From assembly GCF_058153355.1 (NCBI RefSeq), contig NZ_CM177019.1: 64,000 nt of DNA; one strand, given 5' to 3'. A program made the translations under genes and the position numbers. Of this stretch, positions 1-58,760 are shown piece by piece (the stretch's first letter is position 1; every line of letters begins with the position of its first letter). A model generated the notes under the pieces. The model did no database searches. It saw only the letters and a list, made by a program, of their open reading frames with translations, and was not told the DNA's origin.

Positions 1-579
1 GACCGCCGCTTTGGCGTTAAGGGTGTCGAAAACGGTTTCAATCAGGATCAGATCCGCGCCACCTTCCACCAGCGCTTTGGTGGATTCGCGATAGGCCGCC
101 ACCAGCTGGTCAAAAGTGATGTTGCGGAATGCCGGATCGTTTACGTCCGGAGAAATAGACGCCGTGCGATTGGTTGGGCCGAGAACGCCGGCAACATAGC
201 GCGGTTTCTCCGGCGTACGGGCGGTCCACTCGTCAGCACAGGCACGCGCCAGCTTCGCCGCCGCAAAGTTGATTTCCGCCGACAGGGATTCCATCTGGTA
301 ATCCGCCATCGCAATGGTCGTGGAGTTGAAGGTGTTGGTTTCGATGATATCCGCACCCGCTTCAAAGTAGGCGTTGTGGATAGCGGCGATCACTTCCGGT
401 TTGCTGAGCACCAGTAGGTCGTTGTTGCCTTTGAGATCGCATGGCCAGTCGGCAAAGCGTTCACCACGAAAATCGGCTTCGTTCAGTCGATAGCTCTGGA
501 TCATAGTGCCCATACCGCCGTCCAGCACCAGAATACGTTCATTTAACTGCGCACGCAGTTGTTCCACTTTGCTGCTCAC
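1..579 (-). CDS. metH: B12-dependent methionine synthase MetH, 5' portion only (gene continues beyond window start)
   Basis: Minus-strand frame from GTG at 577-579 translates [14 protein letters not shown]..., the MetH N-terminus; no stop before window edge; expected neighbour of iclR. Confidence 0.85.
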
Positions 580-740
580 ACTTGCTCCCGACACGCTCAA
601 CCCAGATTTAATAAAAATTCAACAAACCATACTGGCATAAACGCATCTGTGGTAAAAGCGACCACCACGCAACATGAGATTTGTTCAACATTAACTCATC
701 GGATCAGTTCAGCAACTATTGCATTAGCTAACAATAAAAA

Positions 741-755
741 TGAAAATGATTTCCA
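741..755 (+). promoter_or_regulatory. putative IclR autoregulatory operator upstream of iclR
   Basis: tgaaaatgatttcca resembles the IclR box (TGGAAAT-N-ATTTCCA) ~25 bp upstream of the iclR start. Confidence 0.35.
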
Positions 756-778
756 CGATACAGAAAAAGGAGACTGTC

Positions 779-1603
779 ATGGTCGCACCCATTCCCGCGA
801 AACGCGGCAGAAAACCCGCCGTTGCCACCGCACCAGCGACTGGGCAGGTTCAGTCTTTAACGCGTGGTCTGAAATTACTGGAGTGGATTGCCGAATCCAA
901 TGGCAGTGTGGCACTCACGGAACTGGCGCAACAAGCCGGGTTACCCAATTCCACAACCCACCGCCTGCTAACCACGATGCAACAGCAGGGTTTCGTGCGT
1001 CAAGTCGGCGAACTGGGACACTGGGCAATCGGCGCACATGCCTTTATGGTCGGCAGCAGCTTTCTCCAGAGCCGTAATTTGTTAGCCATTGTTCACCCTA
1101 TCCTGCGCAATCTAATGGAAGAGTCTGGCGAAACGGTAAATATGGCGGTGCTTGATCAAAGCGATCACGAAGCGATTATTATCGATCAGGTACAGTGTAC
1201 TCACCTGATGCGTATGTCCGCCCCTATTGGCGGTAAATTGCCGATGCACGCTTCCGGTGCAGGTAAAGCCTTTTTAGCCCAACTGAGCGAAGAACAGGTG
1301 ACGAAGCTGCTGCACCGCAAAGGGTTACATGCCTATACCCACGCAACACTGGTGTCTCCTGTACATTTAAAAGAAGATCTCGCCCAAACGCGAAAACGGG
1401 GTTATTCATTTGACGATGAGGAACATGCGCTGGGGCTGCGTTGCCTCGCAGCGTGTATTTTCGACGAGCACCGCGAACCATTTGCGGCAATTTCGATTTC
1501 CGGGCCGATTTCACGTATTACCGATGATCGCGTAACCGAGTTTGGTGCGATGGTGATTAAAGCTGCGAAGGAAGTGACGCTGGCGTACGGTGGAATGCGC
1601 TGA
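779..1603 (+). CDS. iclR: IclR transcriptional repressor of the glyoxylate bypass operon (274 aa)
   Basis: ORF 740..1603; product MVAPIPAKRGRKPAVATAPATGQ... recognised as IclR; ATG at 779 preceded by aaaaaggag RBS. Confidence 0.95.
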   Translation: MVAPIPAKRGRKPAVATAPATGQVQSLTRGLKLLEWIAESNGSVALTELAQQAGLPNSTTHRLLTTMQQQGFVRQVGELGHWAIGAHAFMVGSSFLQSRNLLAIVHPILRNLMEESGETVNMAVLDQSDHEAIIIDQVQCTHLMRMSAPIGGKLPMHASGAGKAFLAQLSEEQVTKLLHRKGLHAYTHATLVSPVHLKEDLAQTRKRGYSFDDEEHALGLRCLAACIFDEHREPFAAISISGPISRITDDRVTEFGAMVIKAAKEVTLAYGGMR

Positions 1604-1918
1604 CTTTTTCTGGCGGGTAGAGGTAATATTCTGCCCGTCATACCTGAGTAGCAATAGAATAAGGGTATCTGTTAATCGCATTGACGCAAAAATAACTTAA
1701 TATCATACACTTCACACACTTTTATTAACTCAGCATTATTTTTAAACATCAAACCACTTAATTATTAACATAATCGCAAGAACTCATTGCGCCGAAATTT
1801 TTGCGGTTTCATTATGAGATTGAGCGATTTATGATATTTCTTTACTTGTAATCATATTAAATTTTTCACTGTTCTGATAGTTAAAATTCCAGACATCAAT
1901 AAACAATGAGATATTTAA

Positions 1919-5819
<3,901 letters not shown>

Positions 5820-5838
5820 TCATCAGGAGCAGTGAATT

Positions 5839-6112
<274 letters not shown>

Positions 6113-6123
6113 GTTGTTGTTGC

Positions 6124-7428
6124 TTAGAACTGCGATTCTTCGGTGGAGCCGGTCAGCGCGGTAACCGACGACGTGCCGCCCTGAATAATGGTCGTCACTT
6201 TATCGAAATAACCTGTACCCACTTCCTGCTGGTGAGATACGAAGGTATAGCCATCTTTCGCGGCGGCAAATTCCGGCTGCTGCACTTTCTCAACATAGTG
6301 CTTCATACCCTCGCCCTGGGCATAGGCGTTTGCCAGGTCAAACATGTTGAACCACATGCTGTGGATGCCTGCCAGGGTGATGAACTGGAACTTGTAGCCC
6401 ATATCCGACAGCTGCTGCTGGAAGCTGGCAATAGTTTTGTCGTCGAGGTTTTTCTGCCAATTGAACGACGGCGAGCAGTTATAAGCCAGCAGTTTGCCCG
6501 GATATTTCGCGTGGATGGCTTGTGCAAAGCGACGCGCCAGTTCCAGGTCTGGCGTGGAGGTTTCACACCATACCAGGTCAGCATATGGCGCATACGCCAG
6601 GCCACGGCTGATCGCTTGTTCAATACCTGCATGAGTACGGAAGAAGCCTTCGCTGGTACGCTCGCCGGTAATAAATTCGCTGTCATATGGGTCGCAATCG
6701 GAGGTAATCAGATCCGCCGCATCGGCATCGGTACGAGCAACCAGCAGGGTTGGAACGCCCGTCACGTCAGCTGCCAGACGCGCCGCAACCAGTTTCTGAA
6801 TAGCTTCCTGAGTTGGCACTAAAACTTTGCCGCCCATGTGACCGCATTTCTTCACTGATGCCAGCTGATCTTCGAAGTGAACTGCCGCTGCACCGGCTTC
6901 AATCATCGCTTTCATCAGTTCAAAGGCATTCAGGACACCGCCAAAACCGGCTTCCGCATCGGCGACGATCGGCAGGAAGTAATCGACATAGCGCGGATCG
7001 CCCGGCTCAATGCCCGCGGACCATTGGATCTGATCCGCACGGCGGAAAGTATTGTTGATCCGCTCCACCACAGCTGGCACCGAGTTTGCCGGATAGAGCG
7101 ACTGATCCGGATACATGCTGGCCGCCAGGTTAGCGTCCGCCGCTACCTGCCATCCCGACAGATAGACTGCTTCAATACCCGCTTTCGCCTGTTGCAGCGC
7201 CTGACCGCCAGTCAGTGCACCGAGGCTGTTGATGTAGCCTTTTTTCGACTCGCCATGCAGCAGACGCCACATTTTCGCCGCGCCCAGTTGCGCCAGCGTG
7301 CATTCAGGATTGACTGAACCGCGTAATTTCACCACATCTTCCGCGCTGTATGGGCGAGTAATGCCTTCCCAACGCGGTTGAGTCCACTCTTTCTGTAATT
7401 CTTCAATTTGTTGTGTACGGGTTTTCAT
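6124..7428 (-). CDS. aceA: isocitrate lyase AceA (434 aa)
   Basis: ORF 6124..7443 minus; known N-terminus [15 protein letters not shown] begins 5 codons inside the ORF. Confidence 0.95.
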
Positions 7429-7457
7429 GTGCAGATGCTCCATAGTTATGTGGTGGT

Positions 7458-9059
7458 TTACGCTAACAGGCGGTAGCCTGGCAGGGTCAGGAAATCTATT
7501 AACTCATCGGAAGTGGTGATCTGTTCCATCAAGCGTGCGGCATCGTCAAAACGCCCCTGGGAGAAACGTTCTTCGCCCAGTTCGCTGGTAATGACTTTCA
7601 TCTCTTCGCCCAGCATCTGGCGGAACAAGGCTTTGGTCACCGGTTTGCCATTGCTCAACGTTTTTTGATGATGGATCCACTGCCAGATTGAGGTACGGGA
7701 AATTTCAGCCGTCGCAGCATCTTCCATCAGGCCATAAATCGGCACGCAGCCGTTGCCGGAGATCCATGCTTCGATGTACTGCACAGCCACGCGAATGTTG
7801 GCGCGCATACCTTCTTCGGTGCGTTCACCATCACAAGGTGCCAGCAGCTGATCGGCAGTAATCGGCGCGTCTTGTTCGCGCATCACTTCAAGCTGATTTT
7901 TACGGGAGCCGAGAATGTCGTTGAATACCGCCATTGCCGTGTCAGCAAGGCCAGGGTGGGCAATCCATGTGCCATCGTGACCGTTGTTGGCTTCCAGCGC
8001 TTTATCCGCTTTTACTTTGTTCAGCACCTGGTTATTGCGCTCTTCATCTTTGCTCGGAATAAACGCTGCCATGCCGCCCATCGCAAAAGCTCCGCGTTTA
8101 TGGCAGGTTTTGATTAACAGGCGTGAGTAGGCATTAAGGAACGGTTTATCCATCGTCACTGCCTGTCTGTCTGGCAGGACGCGATCGGGATAGTTTTTCA
8201 ACGTTTTGATATAGCTGAAGATGTAATCCCAACGACCGCAGTTCAGACCAACAATATGGTCACGCAGCGCGTGAAGGATTTCATCCATCTGGAACACGGC
8301 GGGCAGCGTTTCAATCAGCAACGTCGCCTTGATGGTGCCGCGCGCCAGATTAAAGCGATCTTCTGCATAGCTGAAGACTTCGCTCCACCAGGCCGCTTCC
8401 TGCCAGGACTGGGTTTTCGGCAGATAGAAATAGGGACCGCTGCCCTTTGCCAACAGTGCCTGATAGTTGTGAAAGAAGTAGAGCGCAAAATCAAACAGGC
8501 TGCCAGGGATTGCCTCACCACGCCAGGTGACATGTTTTTCCGGCAAATGCAGACCGCGTACCCGACAAATCAAAACCGCTGGATTGGGCTTGAGCTGATA
8601 AATTTTACCTGCTTCATTGGTGTAACTGATGGTGCCATTAACTGCATCGCGCAGGTTAATTTGTCCATCGATCACTTTGTTCCAGTCGGGGGCCAGTGAA
8701 TCCTCAAAATCGGCCATAAAGACTTTCACATTGGCGTTGAGCGCGTTGATCACCATCTTGCGCTCAACCGGGCCAGTTATCTCGACTCGACGATCTTGTA
8801 AGTCCGCAGGAATCCCACGAATTTTCCAGTCATCTTTTCTAATGGAAGCCGTTTCCGAAATAAAATCAGGCAATGTTCCGTTATCGATATCCTGCTGCTG
8901 CTGAATGCGCGCTGCCAGAAGTTTATTACGTTGTGGCGTAAAATGCGTCACCAGCTCAGTCAGAAATTCTACCGCTTCGGCAGTAAGAATTTGCTTCTCC
9001 TGCTCGCCATACGGCCTTGTGAAAACCAGTTCATCGGTTGTTGTTGCCTGTTCAGTCAT
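7458..9059 (-). CDS. aceB: malate synthase A AceB (533 aa)
   Basis: ORF 7458..9077 minus; known N-terminus [13 protein letters not shown] begins 6 codons inside the ORF. Confidence 0.95.
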
Positions 9060-9149
9060 CGTGCAGCTCCTCGTCATGGATCCGAAAACTTCCCCACTGT
9101 GAACGAAGGATTGTTGTGTGCTTTTCGTTCAGCACAACTAAGACTACTC

Positions 9150-9200
9150 ATTTAAAATGCAAAATCAAAAACAATTTCCATTTTAAATAAAAATACATGT
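9150..9200 (-). promoter_or_regulatory. aceBAK promoter region with IclR operator
   Basis: Minus-strand sequence ...aaaatggaaattgtttttgattttgcattttaaatgag... matches the aceB promoter/IclR box as I recall it; AT-rich. Confidence 0.4.
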
Positions 9201-9260
9201 TAACCTATTGATAACAATATGAATAAAATTTATTCACCTCTTGAGGTGTGTTTCGGAAAT

Positions 9261-9283
9261 AAAAAAGGCACCCGAAGGTGCCT
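9261..9283 (-). terminator. rho-independent terminator downstream of metA
   Basis: aaaaaaggcacccgaaggtgcct: GC stem with A-run on plus strand (U-run in minus-strand RNA) just after the metA stop. Confidence 0.6.
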
Positions 9284-9327
9284 GAGGTTAGGTGCTGAAT
9301 CGCTTAACGATCGACTATCACAGAAGA

Positions 9328-10257
9328 TTAATCCAACGTTGGATTCATGTGCCGTAGATCGTATGGCGTGATCTGGTAGACGTAATAGTTGAGCCAGTTG
9401 GTAAACAGCAAATTACCGTGACTACGCCAGCTCGCTCGCGGTGTATTTTGCGGATCATTATGCGGGAAATAGTTATACGGTACATCCGGGTCTAGTCCGG
9501 CTTCCACATCGCGGAAAAATTCCTGCGCCAGCGTATGTGCGTCGTATTCCGGATGCCCCGTCACAAAGGCAATGCGCTTATCTTTGCTGGCAAACAGATA
9601 TGCATCCCCTTCTTCTGTCTCCGCCAGAATTTCCAGATCGGTATAATCACGAATCAACGCTGCCGGAAAGTCAGCATAGCGCGAATGCGGTGCCAGGAAT
9701 GAATCATCAAAGCCACGTGTCAGAAGCGCATGAGGATGGAGAATATGATGCTCGTAAACGCCAGATAGTTTGTCAGTGCGGGTTTGCTTAGGAATGCCAT
9801 AGAGGATATTGAGCGCTGCCTGTACCGCCCAACAGACAAACAGCGTTGAGGTGACGTGATCTTTCGACCACTCCAGCACCTGTTTGATTTGCGGCCAGTA
9901 AGCGACGTCATTAAACTCCACCAGTCCCAGCGGCGCGCCGGTAACTATCAGACCGTCAAAGTTTTGTTCCTGAATATCTTCAAAGTTACAGTAGAAGTTA
10001 TTCAGATGCTCTGCGGGCGTGTTGCGCGATTCACGGGAATCGATGCGCAACAGCTGAATATCGACCTGCAAAGGTGAGTTTGAAAGCAGGCGCAGAAACT
10101 GATTTTCAGTTTCGATCTTCTTCGGCATCAGGTTAAGGATAAGCACCTTTAGCGGACGAATTTCCTGACCAGACGCGCGAGAAGTTGTCATCACAAAGAC
10201 GTTTTCTTCACGCAAGAAATTGACGGCGGGTAGCTCGTCCGGCACACGAATCGGCAT
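9328..10257 (-). CDS. metA: homoserine O-succinyltransferase MetA (309 aa)
   Basis: ORF 9328..10257 minus; product [45 protein letters not shown]... recognised as MetA. Confidence 0.95.
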
Positions 10258-10268
10258 AACCTGATTAC

Positions 10269-10300
10269 CTCACTACATACGCTTATACGTTTAGACATCC
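10269..10300 (-). promoter_or_regulatory. putative MetJ operator (tandem met boxes) in metA promoter
   Basis: Minus-strand ggatgtct-aaacgtat-aagcgtat-gtagtgag: tandem 8-bp units resembling AGACGTCT met boxes, 10-40 bp upstream of metA start. Confidence 0.45.
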
Positions 10301-10413
10301 AGATAGCTGAAGATAACCAGAAAATTTGCCAATGTCGAGCCTGCATGTTGAAGGTGAGAAAGTTTCAAGGAAAAGGCTACGTTAGAATATAAGAATGACG
10401 AAAAGGAGAGAAA

Positions 10414-10857
10414 ATGGTTATTAGTATTCGCCGCTCACGGCATGAGGAAGGGGAAGAACTGGTTGCGATTTGGTGCCGTTCTGTCGATGCCACTCACGAT
10501 TTTTTATCAGCAGAGTATCGGGCCGAGCTGGAAGAGCTGGTGCGTTCCTTCCTGCCGGAAGCGCCGTTGTGGGTCGCGGTTAATGAGCGGGATCGGCCGG
10601 TTGGGTTTATGTTGTTAAGTGGGCAGCATATGGATGCGCTGTTTATCGATCCTGATGTGCGCGGCTGCGGCGTGGGTCGGATGCTGGTGGAACATGCGCT
10701 CTCGATGGCACCGGAACTGACAACCAACGTTAATGAGCAAAATACGCAGGCGGTGGGGTTCTATAAAACGATGGGGTTTAAGGTTACGGGACGCTCGGCA
10801 GTTGACGATTTGGGGAAACCGTATCCGTTGCTGAATCTGGCGTATGTGGAGGCGTAG
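10414..10857 (+). CDS. yjaB: GNAT-family N-acetyltransferase YjaB (147 aa)
   Basis: ORF 10414..10857; recognised as YjaB by sequence and position next to metA. Confidence 0.9.
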   Translation: MVISIRRSRHEEGEELVAIWCRSVDATHDFLSAEYRAELEELVRSFLPEAPLWVAVNERDRPVGFMLLSGQHMDALFIDPDVRGCGVGRMLVEHALSMAPELTTNVNEQNTQAVGFYKTMGFKVTGRSAVDDLGKPYPLLNLAYVEA

Positions 10858-10920
10858 GCAATTTTTTTCTCATCCCGGTGAGCTGAACTTCAGGTTTCGT
10901 ACCCACCAATGGTGACATGA

Positions 10921-11304
10921 TTATTTCTGCTTAAGCATTGCCATGACCGCACTATCACTGAGCACCACTGATTGCGCATGAATGTGGAAATGGCGATATT
11001 TCATTAACGTTGCACCAGCGACCACTTCATGAAGAATGCGTTCCTCAACCTGTGACAAACCGCCCTCATTCATTTCCAGTGCGCTCACAACAATATCCAT
11101 ACGTTTTGCTGGCAAAAAAGAGTACCAGGGTGAACGTGGGTGGAGTTGCAAAACAAGATCTTGCAGAACTTTTTCTGCAACAAAGAAATTGGCGATTAAC
11201 AGGCGCTGGTTACTGAAGGCAGCCTCTCCTGACACTTCACGTTTGCTTTCAAGATCGCGAACAGTAATTTGATTACGACGAATTTGGATATACAGAACTG
11301 ACAT
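10921..11304 (-). CDS. yjaA: stress-response protein YjaA (127 aa)
   Basis: ORF 10921..11340 minus; start assigned to internal ATG at 11302-11304 (MSVLYIQIRRNQ...) with gaaggga RBS. Confidence 0.8.
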   Translation of the reverse strand: MSVLYIQIRRNQITVRDLESKREVSGEAAFSNQRLLIANFFVAEKVLQDLVLQLHPRSPWYSFLPAKRMDIVVSALEMNEGGLSQVEERILHEVVAGATLMKYRHFHIHAQSVVLSDSAVMAMLKQK

Positions 11305-11335
11305 GAGATTCCCTTCATCATGCAAATAATTGATA

Positions 11336-11370
11336 TGCAAAAAACCCCGGCCTTATGGACCGGGGTTTTT
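11336..11370 (-). terminator. rrnE operon terminator
   Basis: aaaaaccccggccttatggaccggggttttt hairpin flanked by A/T runs immediately 3' of the 5S gene. Confidence 0.7.
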
Positions 11371-11378
11371 CTAATTTG

Positions 11379-11498
11379 ATGCCTGGCAGTTCCCTACTCT
11401 CGCATGGGGAGGCCCCACACTACCATCGGCGCTACGGCGTTTCACTTCTGAGTTCGGCATGGGGTCAGGTGGGACCACCGCGCTAAGGCCGCCAGGCA
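11379..11498 (-). rRNA. rrfE: 5S ribosomal RNA (rrnE operon)
   Basis: 120-nt match to E. coli 5S rRNA (reverse complement tgcctggcggcc...ctgccaggcat). Confidence 0.95.
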
Positions 11499-11684
11499 AA
11501 TTCCTGTGCTCTGTCCTGTGTCTTTTGTGCTGATACTGCGTTGGCTGCATTCGCGAAAATCAGTCACATACTTCAGTATGCTCCTTCCTTCGCTTCATTT
11601 GCCGCCTTGTCTCAGCGCAAAATCCTTCGGACTCTGGATCCAAGCTGAAATTCTCTCAATCCGCCAAAACACCTTCGGCGTTGT

Positions 11685-14589
<2,905 letters not shown>

Positions 14590-14773
14590 TCACAACCCGA
14601 AGATGTTTCACTTCTGATTGCGAAAATTTGAGAGACTCACGAACAACTTTCATTGTTCAGTGTTTCAATTTTCAGCTTGATCCAGATTTTTAAAGAGCAA
14701 ATATCTTAAACATGACTCGTAAGTCATCTTTAACGATATTAAGGTCGGCGACTTTCACTCACAAACCAGCAAG

Positions 14774-14849
14774 TGGCGTCCCCTAGGGGATTCGAACCCC
14801 TGTTACCGCCGTGAAAGGGCGGTGTCCTGGGCCTCTAGACGAAGGGGAC
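14774..14849 (-). tRNA. gltV: tRNA-Glu (UUC) in 16S-23S spacer
   Basis: Reverse complement gtccccttcgtctagaggcccaggacaccgccctttcacggcggtaacaggggttcgaatcccctaggggacgcca = tRNA-Glu. Confidence 0.95.
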
Positions 14850-14934
14850 GTATCAGTCTGCTTCGCAAGACGCCTTGCTTTTCACTTTCTATCAGACAAT
14901 CTGTGTGAGCACTGCAAAGAACAGTTCTTTAAGG

Positions 14935-16476
<1,542 letters not shown>

Positions 16477-16810
16477 AAAAGTTTGATGCTCAAAGAATTA
16501 AACTTCGTAATGAATTACGTGTTCACTCTTGAGACTTGGTATTCATTTTTCGTCTTGCGACGTTAAGAATCCGTATCTTCGAGTGCCCACACAGATTGTC
16601 TGATAAATTGTTAAAGAGCAGTTGCGACGCGGCTTTCAGCTCACTGTCGCGAGGTGGCGTATATTACGCTTTCCTCTTTCAGAGTCAACCCTGAATTTCA
16701 GGATTTTTTCTCTTCAACCGAACCGGCTGTTTGTGTGAAGTGATTCACATCCGCCGTGTCGATGGAGGCGCATTATAGGGAGTTCTCCGCAGGCCGCAAT
16801 AGAAAAATTG
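16477..16810 (-). promoter_or_regulatory. rrnE P1/P2 promoter and leader region
   Basis: Minus-strand TTGCGG...TATAAT (P1, -10 at ~16772-16777) and TTGACT...TAATATAC (P2, -35 at 16683-16688) upstream of the 16S 5' end. Confidence 0.6.
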
Positions 16811-43683: not shown

Positions 43684-44095
43684 TAGCTTTGCTCCTGGAT
43701 GTTTGCCAGAGAAAATCTCTGGAACTCACTTCACTCCTCCAAACGGAGAGAGCGTCTTAATTACGGTGAGCAGAAACAAGCCAGAATATAAAAGAATAAT
43801 CTTAGCGTTCTGTCACCGTCTACGCAGGGGATTAAGTTTCTTGCGAAACTCCTGCGGTCTTCGACGGAGGCCTGGATAGGCCAGGCTCCAACGAACAAAT
43901 CTTTTCTATCCGTCGCTATTCAGCTTGTAGCGGCGTTGGCTTCCTTCGTTCGCACCAGTCACATAGTTAGCTATGCTCCTGGCGACTCACTCAGTTGCCG
44001 CCTTGCTACAACCCGAATATCTCGGATATACGTCTGCATTAAGCATTATACGTGGGGGTAAGATTGTAGACAAAATCACCGCCCACGTAAAGGCA
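43684..44095 (-). promoter_or_regulatory. rplJ leader (L10 promoter and L10/L12 autoregulatory site)
   Basis: ~410-nt untranslated spacer between rplA and rplJ; known long rplJ leader. Confidence 0.5.
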
Positions 44096-53180: not shown

Positions 53181-53194
53181 TTCTGCTTAATTTG

Positions 53195-53314
53195 ATGCCT
53201 GGCAGTTCCCTACTCTCGCATGGGGAGACCCCACACTACCATCGGCGCTACGGCGTTTCACTTCTGAGTTCGGCATGGGGTCAGGTGGGACCACCGCGCT
53301 AAGGCCGCCAGGCA
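53195..53314 (-). rRNA. rrfB: 5S ribosomal RNA (rrnB operon)
   Basis: 120-nt match to E. coli 5S rRNA; differs from the rrnE copy at one position (53228 a vs 11412 g). Confidence 0.95.
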
Positions 53315-53500
53315 AATTCCTGTGCTCTGTCCTGTGTCTTTTGTGCTGATACTGCGTTGGCTGCATTCGCGAAAATCAGTCACATACTTCAGTATGCTCC
53401 TTCCTTCGCTTCATTTGCCGCCTTGTCTCAGCGCAAAATCCTTCGGACTCTGGATCCAAGCTGAAATTCTCTCAATCCGCCAAAACACCTTCGGCGTTGT

Positions 53501-56405
<2,905 letters not shown>

Positions 56406-56589
56406 TCACAACCCGAAGATGTTTCACTTCTGATTGCGAAAATTTGAGAGACTCACGAACAACTTTCATTGTTCAGTGTTTCAATTTTCAGCTTGATCCA
56501 GATTTTTAAAGAGCAAATATCTTAAACATGACTCGTAAGTCATCTTTAACGATATTAAGGTCGGCGACTTTCACTCACAAACCAGCAAG

Positions 56590-56665
56590 TGGCGTCCCCT
56601 AGGGGATTCGAACCCCTGTTACCGCCGTGAAAGGGCGGTGTCCTGGGCCTCTAGACGAAGGGGAC
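56590..56665 (-). tRNA. gltT: tRNA-Glu (UUC) in 16S-23S spacer
   Basis: Same tRNA-Glu sequence as at 14774..14849. Confidence 0.95.
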
Positions 56666-56836
56666 ACGAAAATTGCTTATCACGCGCTGCGTGATATTTT
56701 CGTGTAGGGTGAGCTTTCATTAATAGAAAGCGAACGGCCTTATTCTCTTCAGCCTCACTCCCAACGCGTAAACGCCTTGCTATTCACTTTTCATCAGACA
56801 ATCTGTGTGAGCACTGCAAAGAACAGTTCTTTAAGG

Positions 56837-58378
<1,542 letters not shown>

Positions 58379-58760
58379 AAAAGTTTGATGCTCAAAGAAT
58401 TAAACTTCGTAATGAATTACGTGTTCACTCTTGAGACTTGGTATTCATTTTTCGTCTTGCGACGTTAAGAATCCGTATCTTCGAGTGCCCACACAGATTG
58501 TCTGATAAATTGTTAAAGAGCAGTGCCGCTTCGCTTTTTCTCAGCGGCGCGGGGTGTGCATAATACGCTTTCCCGCTACAGAGTCAAGCATTTTTTTGCT
58601 TTTCTCTGTTGAGATTCTCAGGAGAACCCCGCTGACCCGGCGGCGTGTTTGCCGTTGTTCCGTGTCAGTGGTGGCGCATTATAGGGAGTTATTCCGGCCT
58701 GACAAGAGGAAATTTAAAATAATTTTCCAACCGCGCAACATTCAACCAAATCAGTCTAAA
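58379..58760 (-). promoter_or_regulatory. rrnB P1/P2 promoters, UP element and leader
   Basis: Minus-strand aaaattattttaaatttcctcTTGTCAggccggaataactcccTATAATgcgccacc (P1: -35 at 58710-58715, -10 at 58688-58693) and TTGACT...TATTATG (P2: -35 at 58582-58587, -10 at 58559-58565). Confidence 0.8.

Follow-up and report, generated by a model that had tools for sequence, protein, structure and literature searches.

Results

Organization of the two rrn operons

The stretch of DNA analysed here (the window: 64,000 nucleotides of contig NZ_CM177019.1, RefSeq assembly GCF_058153355.1) contains two rrn operons, both on the minus strand (Table 1). On one side of the pair lie arpA-aceKAB-metA, and the Rfam features of the window, namely the thiC TPP riboswitch, the btuB cobalamin riboswitch and a tRNA cluster consistent with thrU-tyrU-glyT-thrT, fit the same region of the chromosome; this synteny supports the labels rrnE and rrnB given to the operons in a preliminary description of the window. 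Read directly, the 3' end of 23S (...GGCUUAACCUU) falls at 11685 and 53501, and both 5S copies are full-length matches to Rfam RF00001 (92.0 and 93.2 bits; gathering score 38). A StyR-44 match is found directly upstream of each 23S gene, within ITS1 (14597..14695 and 56413..56511, minus strand; Rfam).

String comparison of the two 23S-5S spacers showed them to be the same 186-nt sequence, as had been claimed. In E. coli K-12 MG1655, for which all seven 23S-5S junctions were compared, the spacer measures 92-93 nt in every operon. Long and short spacers have their first ~52 nt in common at 89% identity (by alignment and by megablast, including K-12 MC4100) as well as their last ~9 nt, ACAG(G)AAUU, and their middles are unrelated, so that the earlier statement that only the two ends are common with the K-12 spacer holds. 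It is the segment from nt 53 to nt 172 that makes the spacer long; K-12 has a mini-hairpin of ~26 nt at that place. The view that the window carries a non-K-12 rrn allele type is likewise sustained, since none of the seven MG1655 operons has the long spacer or U13 in its 5S gene.

Table 1. Positions of the rrn genes, the segments of the long spacer and the related repeat in the window
Feature	Position	Strand	Basis or remark
23S rRNA	11685..14589 and 53501..56405	-	Rfam
16S rRNA	14935..16476 and 56837..58378	-	Rfam
5S rRNA	about 11381..11496 and 53197..53312	-	Rfam match bounds
5S rRNA, 120 nt, rrnE side	11379..11498	-	direct reading; C12 (11487), U13 (11486), C87 (11412)
5S rRNA, 120 nt, rrnB side	53195..53314	-	direct reading; C12, U13 (53302), U87
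23S-5S spacer (ITS2), rrnE side, long allele, 186 nt	11499..11684	-	
23S-5S spacer, rrnB side, 186 nt, same sequence as the rrnE-side copy	53315..53500	-	
Spacer nt 1-20 (ACAACGCCGAAGGUGUUUUG), 3' strand of the 23S RNase III stem	11665..11684; rrnB copy 53481..53500	-	
23S 5' flank (GUGAAACAUCUUCGGGUUGUGA...), 5' strand of the RNase III stem	14590..14617	-	cofold
Spacer nt 21-52 (GGCGGAUUGAGAGAAUUUCAGCUUGGAUCCAGA), linker homologous to the K-12 short spacer	11633..11664	-	megablast, alignment
Spacer nt 53-172, imperfect palindrome of the ERIC/IRU family, ~120-nt hairpin	11513..11632; rrnB copy 53329..53448	-	
Spacer nt 76-149, core aligned to ERIC consensus 27-101, apex GGAGCAUAC-UGAA-GUAUGUGACUG	11536..11609	-	alignment
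Spacer nt 173-186 (AGAGCACAGGAAUU), predicted single-stranded, A/U-rich, abuts the 5S 5' end	11499..11512	-	
Full-length canonical ERIC, rplA-rplJ intergenic region	43907..44030	-	ERIC consensus 1-125; paralogue of the spacer element within the window

Spacer alleles across E. coli

The 186-nt spacer is not new: it is a published, natural long allele of the E. coli 23S-5S spacer and belongs to the ordinary natural variation of the species. At a threshold of at least 95% identity over the full length, 368 of 5426 complete E. coli genomes have the long allele, among them those of ATCC 8739, E. coli C and BLR(DE3), a derivative of E. coli B. The spacer of the window is 97.3% identical to the allele of E. 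coli B, C and ATCC 8739, and it differs from BLR(DE3) by five substitutions (spacer nt 13, 44, 48, 126 and 143) with no indels. It is found at 100% identity in four complete E. coli genomes. According to a study of gene conversion rates between E. coli ribosomal operons (G3 2020; PMC8022953), E. coli B REL606 carries a 186-bp allele of the same length and at the same position, to which the window spacer is again 97.3% identical. The form in the window is the rarer variant: matches to it reach 99% identity or more in only 11 of the 5426 genomes and lie between 95 and 99% in 361.

The K-12-type short 3' half is present in 4378 of the 5426 genomes, with a median of seven copies, and about 1000 of the 5426 gave no megablast match to it. 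A 100-nt spacer, as in strain SK1144, is a third E. coli allele, with a different mini-hairpin between CAGAUUAAAUC and GAUAAAACAGAAUU. The flank of the window that holds arpA-aceKAB-metA (window 1..11300) reaches no more than 98.3% identity with any complete E. coli RefSeq genome (5426 compared), and for this reason the window appears to come from a sparsely sampled Escherichia lineage. The nearest genomes by this flank are 2020CK-00188, 2017-02-2CC, 2013C-4282, WL297 and EC42405, largely the same strains as those with the spacer at 100% identity.

Probable homogenization between rrnE and rrnB

A tract of 3478 nt (11372..14849 and 53188..56665), which runs from the 3' end of 5S through the spacer and 23S to the ITS1 tRNA, is identical in the two operons save for a single mismatch at 5S position 87. 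When the comparison was taken over 11372..16688 and 53188..58587, the part that comprises 16S and its leader proved only 98.7% identical (19 differences and 5 gaps in 1820 nt), and the lengths of ITS1 differ between the operons (~86 nt, between tRNA and 16S). Near-identity over the first part beside divergence over the second is the pattern expected from gene conversion, and it agrees with the proposal that the allele was homogenized between operons. The sharpness of the identity boundary suggests that it marks the edge of a conversion tract.

In the E. coli B study, whole-spacer conversions between the 186-bp and the 92-bp allele were measured experimentally. REL606 has the 186-bp allele in four operons and the 92-bp allele in three; conversion took place in both directions, each time as a single block; and four whole-spacer conversions in mutation-accumulation lines correspond to 3.5e-5 per genome per generation (PMC8022953).

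An ERIC-like hairpin in the spacer

As RNA, spacer nt 53-172 are predicted to fold into a stable hairpin (MFE -56.5 kcal/mol, z = -3.8). The relatives of this middle segment resembled the core of the ERIC-PCR primers. Within the window, a local blastn search with the spacer middle matched 43933..44005 (72.6% over 73 nt, E 1.3e-5), in the 412-nt intergenic region between rplA and rplJ (length from ORF coordinates). The 127-nt E. coli ERIC consensus of Wilson and Sharp (2006), as printed by Delihas (2007; PMC2759123, Table 1a), served as the reference for alignment. Nt 76-149 of the long spacer aligned to consensus positions 27-101 with a score of 59, compared with 15.9 +/- 2.3 in shuffles (maximum 26). 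The rplA-rplJ copy scored 109 (shuffles 15.6 +/- 2.3) over consensus 1-125. Another copy, between glyV and glyX, scored 90 (shuffles 15.5 +/- 2.3); it forms a 121-nt insertion that a sensitive search recovered in 1441 of 5426 E. coli genomes and that K-12 lacks. The glyV-glyX ERIC, like the rrn copy, lies within a stable-RNA operon spacer.

A profile HMM of 127 positions was built from 42 hairpins from outside the window, taken solely from spacers of other genera, and searched with nhmmer. It matched the window spacers at E 5.9e-34, positions 11-121 of the ERIC consensus at E 2.2e-17, the glyV-glyX ERICs at E 4e-15, the rplA-rplJ ERIC at E 1.3e-12 and the Salmonella SeRU-1 at E 1.4e-9; the short and 100-nt spacers tested gave no match. 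The idea that the K-12 short spacer is an ERIC remnant thus received no support, its alignment score of 16 also being at chance level (shuffles 14.5 +/- 2.1). Spacers with the type-C outer stem (Citrobacter, Klebsiella) align to ERIC positions 10-117. In the alignments of the type-A outer stem of the window (GUCC...GGAC), ERIC termini and a TA duplication are not recognizable. Given the alignment scores, the profile matches and the type-C alignment, the extra segment is, by sequence similarity, best classed as an ERIC/IRU-family element that is orthologous across many genera. A literature search disclosed no link between ERIC and the 23S-5S spacer; the primary ERIC surveys lay outside its coverage, and an earlier listing is possible. 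For a known allele, the assignment to ERIC and the depth to which the hairpin is conserved are a modest addition to the annotation.

Conservation and covariation across Enterobacterales

A collection with one genome per species was scanned for loci in which a 23S 3' end and a 5S 5' end stood 171-201 nt apart, this spacing only. Homologues of the window spacer, with the same element in the same orientation, made up 48 of the 53 loci found, and 43 distinct sequences were used further. About 20 Enterobacterales genera, from the families Enterobacteriaceae, Erwiniaceae and Budviciaceae, have the hairpin at this site, among them Enterobacter, Pseudocitrobacter, Trabulsiella, Salmonella (arizonae, diarizonae), Kosakonia, Phytobacter, Klebsiella, Citrobacter, Cedecea, Mangrovibacter, Superficieibacter, Pantoea (Erwiniaceae) and Leminorella (Budviciaceae). 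The apex, GGAGCAUAC-NNNN-GUAUGUGAC, is nearly invariant in the 43 spacers. The outer stem comes in at least three self-complementary types (GUCC...GGAC, GAAACGAA...UUCGUUUC and GUACGCAAU...AUUGCGUAC), and these are mixed within genomes, S. arizonae and K. indica each having two; in Pseudenterobacter one copy is a hybrid whose outer arms are mismatched. The 123-nt hairpin of the window differs from that of Pseudocitrobacter at only 2 positions, and the 5' 52 nt of the window spacer are Escherichia/Salmonella-like, not Pseudocitrobacter-like.

RNAalifold, run on the raw MAFFT alignment, found no more than the inner 19 pairs, the outer stem being misplaced by indels. The MFE hairpin of the window was therefore mapped onto the sequence-only MAFFT alignment of the 43 spacers for the counting of pairs. 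A standard pair was formed in 86.8% of cells, compared with 32-46% when partners were slid, a proportion that is somewhat inflated by the origin of the mapped structure in one of the aligned sequences, with the slid controls and the double changes arguing that the signal is real. Changes on both sides were seen in 18 of 36 pairs (15.4 in shuffles). The number of doubly changed cells was 146, a value that none of 500 shuffles reached (53 +/- 8), and the covariation score was 0.267 (0.130 in shuffles). The alignment thus indicates that an orthologous ERIC-like hairpin keeps its pairing through compensatory changes in many Enterobacterales genera.

Predicted folding of the spacer in the rRNA precursor

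Spacer nt 1-20, which are conserved in all 43 aligned spacers and common to the K-12 short spacers, cofold with the 5' flank of 23S into a near-perfect duplex of ~27 bp (-44.7 kcal/mol) that is the classical RNase III stem. The preliminary description had raised the question whether the extra segment itself folds into an RNase III/RNase E processing stem. The answer is a different one: the RNase III strand is provided by the first ~20 nt, common to K-12, and the extra segment is a hairpin of the ERIC family. At the other end, the last 14 spacer nt are unpaired in the predicted folds, and the ...GAAUU that precedes 5S is conserved across genera. The long-spacer/5S junction retains ACAGGAAUU followed directly by UGCC, also unpaired in the predicted folds. 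By analogy, nt 173-186 would be the counterpart of the 'a' site region of K-12 9S RNA (ACAGAAUU followed by UGCC), where RNase E may cut in the long allele too (PMC8522691).

5S rRNA variants

Both 5S copies of the window have C12 and U13. In K-12, position 12 is A in rrfA/B/E/F and C in rrfC/D/G/H, and position 13 is always G. The earlier observation that these genes depart from K-12 rrnB is correct in substance (A12C, G13U), but its numbering was shifted: the 'TT' reported there corresponds to positions 13-14, of which U14 is invariant. The first 60 nt of the C12/U13 form are matched exactly in 4115 of 5463 E. coli records (~75%), and U13 is the majority 5S state in E. coli. Strain MRE600 was reportedly found in the 1960s to have G/U heterogeneity at position 13, a point on which nothing here relies.

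The two copies also differ from each other at position 87, as first described, with C87 on the rrnE side only (window 11412). The 60-mer that contains C87 is matched exactly in only 4 of the 5463 records; U87C (UCU to CCU) may be a private variant or a sequencing error. By direct reading, position 87 lies within a UCU hairpin loop between G83-G86 and C90-C93, and positions 12, 13 and 87 presumably all lie in loops of the E. coli 5S secondary structure. A linkage of the long spacer with U13 was considered and rejected: G13 adjoins the long spacer in BLR(DE3), 2013C-4282 and strain H1, and U13 adjoins a short spacer in O157:H7 and the 100-nt spacer in SK1144.

Discussion

The explanation that accounts best for these observations, to which we assign a probability of about 0.8, is that the window carries the known long allele of the E. 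coli 23S-5S spacer, that its middle is a hairpin of the ERIC family, that the precursor is processed much as in K-12, and that the allele has spread between operons by gene conversion; under the same joint estimate, the 5S differences would be independent point variants in unpaired loops, U13 in loop A being common and C87 in loop D rare. Most likely the cell tolerates the extra segment as a removable pre-rRNA hairpin, which gene conversion carries from operon to operon.

We propose that transcription of the rrn precursor covers the complete spacer. RNase III cleavage of the 23S stem would then release a 9S-like 5S precursor with a 5' leader ~94 nt longer than that of K-12, and RNase E would subsequently cut in the single-stranded tail just upstream of 5S, whereupon the hairpin leader would be discarded and degraded. 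Since the mature rRNAs would remain unchanged, the long and short alleles would be functionally interchangeable. The spacer allele probably moves from one operon to another by RecA-type gene conversion, which would explain why the rrnB and rrnE spacers are identical. The hairpin is probably not a recent insertion, given its same-site orthologues in many genera. This pathway is extrapolated to the long allele from the K-12 short allele. If stem-loop II of 9S RNA lies within 5S, as we assume, an exchange of the leader hairpin without consequence would fit. For K-12 9S RNA, stem-loop II is reported to be the least structure that 'a'-site cleavage requires (PMC8522691).

The 5' leader (domain I) of K-12 9S RNA, the RNase E substrate for 5S maturation, is the closest functional parallel in terms of position, for it likewise extends from the RNase III cut to the 5' end of 5S, consists of a hairpin followed by single-stranded ACAG(G)AAUU that abuts 5S, and is homologous over the first 52 nt. 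Its hairpin, in contrast, is only ~26 nt long (AAUCAGAACGCAGAAGCGGUCUGAUA) and has no similarity to ERIC, whereas that of the window measures ~120 nt. As to sequence, the parallel is with the ERIC/IRU/RU-1 repeats of enterobacteria, which are said to have been described by Sharples and Lloyd in 1990, by Hulton and colleagues in 1991 and by Wilson and Sharp in 2006. The spacer element resembles these ~127-nt imperfect palindromes in that it lies in a transcribed intergenic region, would form a long hairpin RNA, has the conserved core CAAGGCGGCAA...GGAGC-UAC...GUA-GUGACUG...GCAGCCAACGCAG and is accompanied by other copies in the same genome or species (rplA-rplJ, glyV-glyX). It differs from them in being located within an rRNA operon and in being orthologous across genera instead of scattered; moreover, its core is flanked by GCGAAGGAAGG and UGAUUUUCGC where ERIC has GUGAAUCCCCAGG and UGGGGUGAGC, its outer arms are divergent, and the type found in the window has no recognizable TA duplication or ERIC termini. 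In the available portion of the REL606 paper the two spacer alleles are treated as simply divergent, with no identification of an ERIC element (PMC8022953). RPE repeats are a more distant parallel: inserted in the tmRNA and RNase P RNA genes of Rickettsia (Ogata et al. 2002, reviewed in PMC2229807), they too are small palindromic repeats of mobile type inside a stable-RNA transcription unit whose function is not abolished. They belong to an unrelated family, however, and lie inside the mature RNA genes, whereas the repeat in the window lies in a spacer that would be removed.

It might be argued that the hairpin is a selected functional element of the precursor and not a tolerated passenger, for example a structure that guides or docks RNase E, RNase III or an assembly factor; it might also be a domesticated ERIC or indeed the source copy of the family. 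We consider this rather unlikely, even though the same site and orientation in three families, the compensatory changes in half of the pairs, with a covariation beyond that of any shuffle, the near-invariance of the apical 25 nt and the two differences that separate the window from Pseudocitrobacter all speak in its favour. Conservation of the apex across three families and the covariation do exceed what a purely neutral passenger would predict. On the other hand, all seven K-12 operons and most E. coli genomes do without the hairpin, E. coli B carries and interconverts both alleles (PMC8022953), and a third allele exists. ERIC copies elsewhere also show compensation from arm to arm, which means that the covariation may be a property of the repeat family, and the outer arms of the hybrid Pseudenterobacter hairpin do not match. 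The coexistence of the alleles in one cell, their conversion in both directions and the lack of the long form in K-12 argue for near-neutrality in E. coli. In the fullest version of the functional account, the hairpin would have been fixed at this one 23S-5S site from a time before Enterobacteriaceae, Erwiniaceae and Budviciaceae diverged and kept by selection on RNA structure and apex, as a domesticated repeat in 5S/23S maturation or ribosome assembly or possibly as the ancestral 'home' copy of the dispersed ERICs, with the K-12 short spacer as a derived loss; this version, too, seems to us doubtful.

Tolerance of an old resident must further be weighed against a recent event, in which an active ERIC/MITE entered rrn by transposition within this lineage or another genus recently donated the spacer. 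The ERIC family is regarded as a MITE (PMC2229807), the glyV-glyX ERIC is polymorphic in its presence among E. coli, the hairpin is nearly identical to that of Pseudocitrobacter, and different outer-stem types occur side by side in single genomes. Yet 48 spacers from a range of genera agree in site and orientation, and 368 E. coli genomes carry the allele. Nor does adding 127 nt to the short form yield the long one, which replaces the K-12 mini-hairpin with no visible target duplication, and the Escherichia/Salmonella-like 5' part does not match an import from Pseudocitrobacter; a recent event is thus improbable. That the extra segment encodes a small protein, an sRNA, a promoter or a terminator is very improbable. 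A 67-codon ORF does run through the element on the plus strand (11506..11709) and has the HLPPC of the ERIC 'RU-1' peptide noted by Delihas (PMC2759123), and direct reading of the RNA strand gives an AAGGAG...AUG-UGA start-stop motif. The ORF is antisense to the rRNA, however, and overlaps the 3' end of 23S; ORFs are not conserved across the aligned genera, in which indels are frequent; an Rfam search at E <= 10 over 11370..11720 returned 5S alone, plus one chance match; and a scan of 11250..11800 placed no promoter-like or terminator-like site in the spacer. Operons of the rrn type are classic problem regions for assembly, and two copies identical over 3.5 kb could in principle reflect collapsed or mis-joined repeats that merely make the spacers look identical and long. 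We regard such an artefact as extremely improbable, as four complete genomes, independent of one another, share the 186-nt spacer at 100% identity and over 360 further ones match it at ~97%, and the operons differ at 5S position 87, in ITS1 and in the 16S leader, which indicates that the copies were not collapsed. In REL606 derivatives the long spacer was confirmed by PCR and Sanger sequencing (PMC8022953).

Differences in rrn spacer length among E. coli are real alleles and not assembly errors, and the sequence of K-12 rrnB, or of the cloning vectors, should not be taken as 'the' E. coli spacer. As a convenient all-or-none marker, the spacer registers gene conversion between operons, a use to which it has already been put. 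ERIC, which is usually treated as junk or mobile DNA, here occupies a conserved pre-rRNA position in many enteric genera, with a fold that is kept by compensatory changes. If function and not intrinsic palindromy underlies this conserved fold, the element would be a rare domesticated bacterial MITE and would offer a defined RNA context in which to study ERIC.

Long 23S-5S spacers of another kind, 172-186 nt in length and not ERIC-like, are found in Escherichia sp. ESNIH1, Symbiopectobacterium and Yersinia aleksiciae, with a block of small hairpins (GACAAAAUCG...CGAUUUUG, CCCGAAGGGG, GUAUC...GAUAC) nearer the 23S end. Elsewhere in the window, Rfam identified three tandem naRNA4 (REP-type) elements at 5838..6098 on the minus strand.
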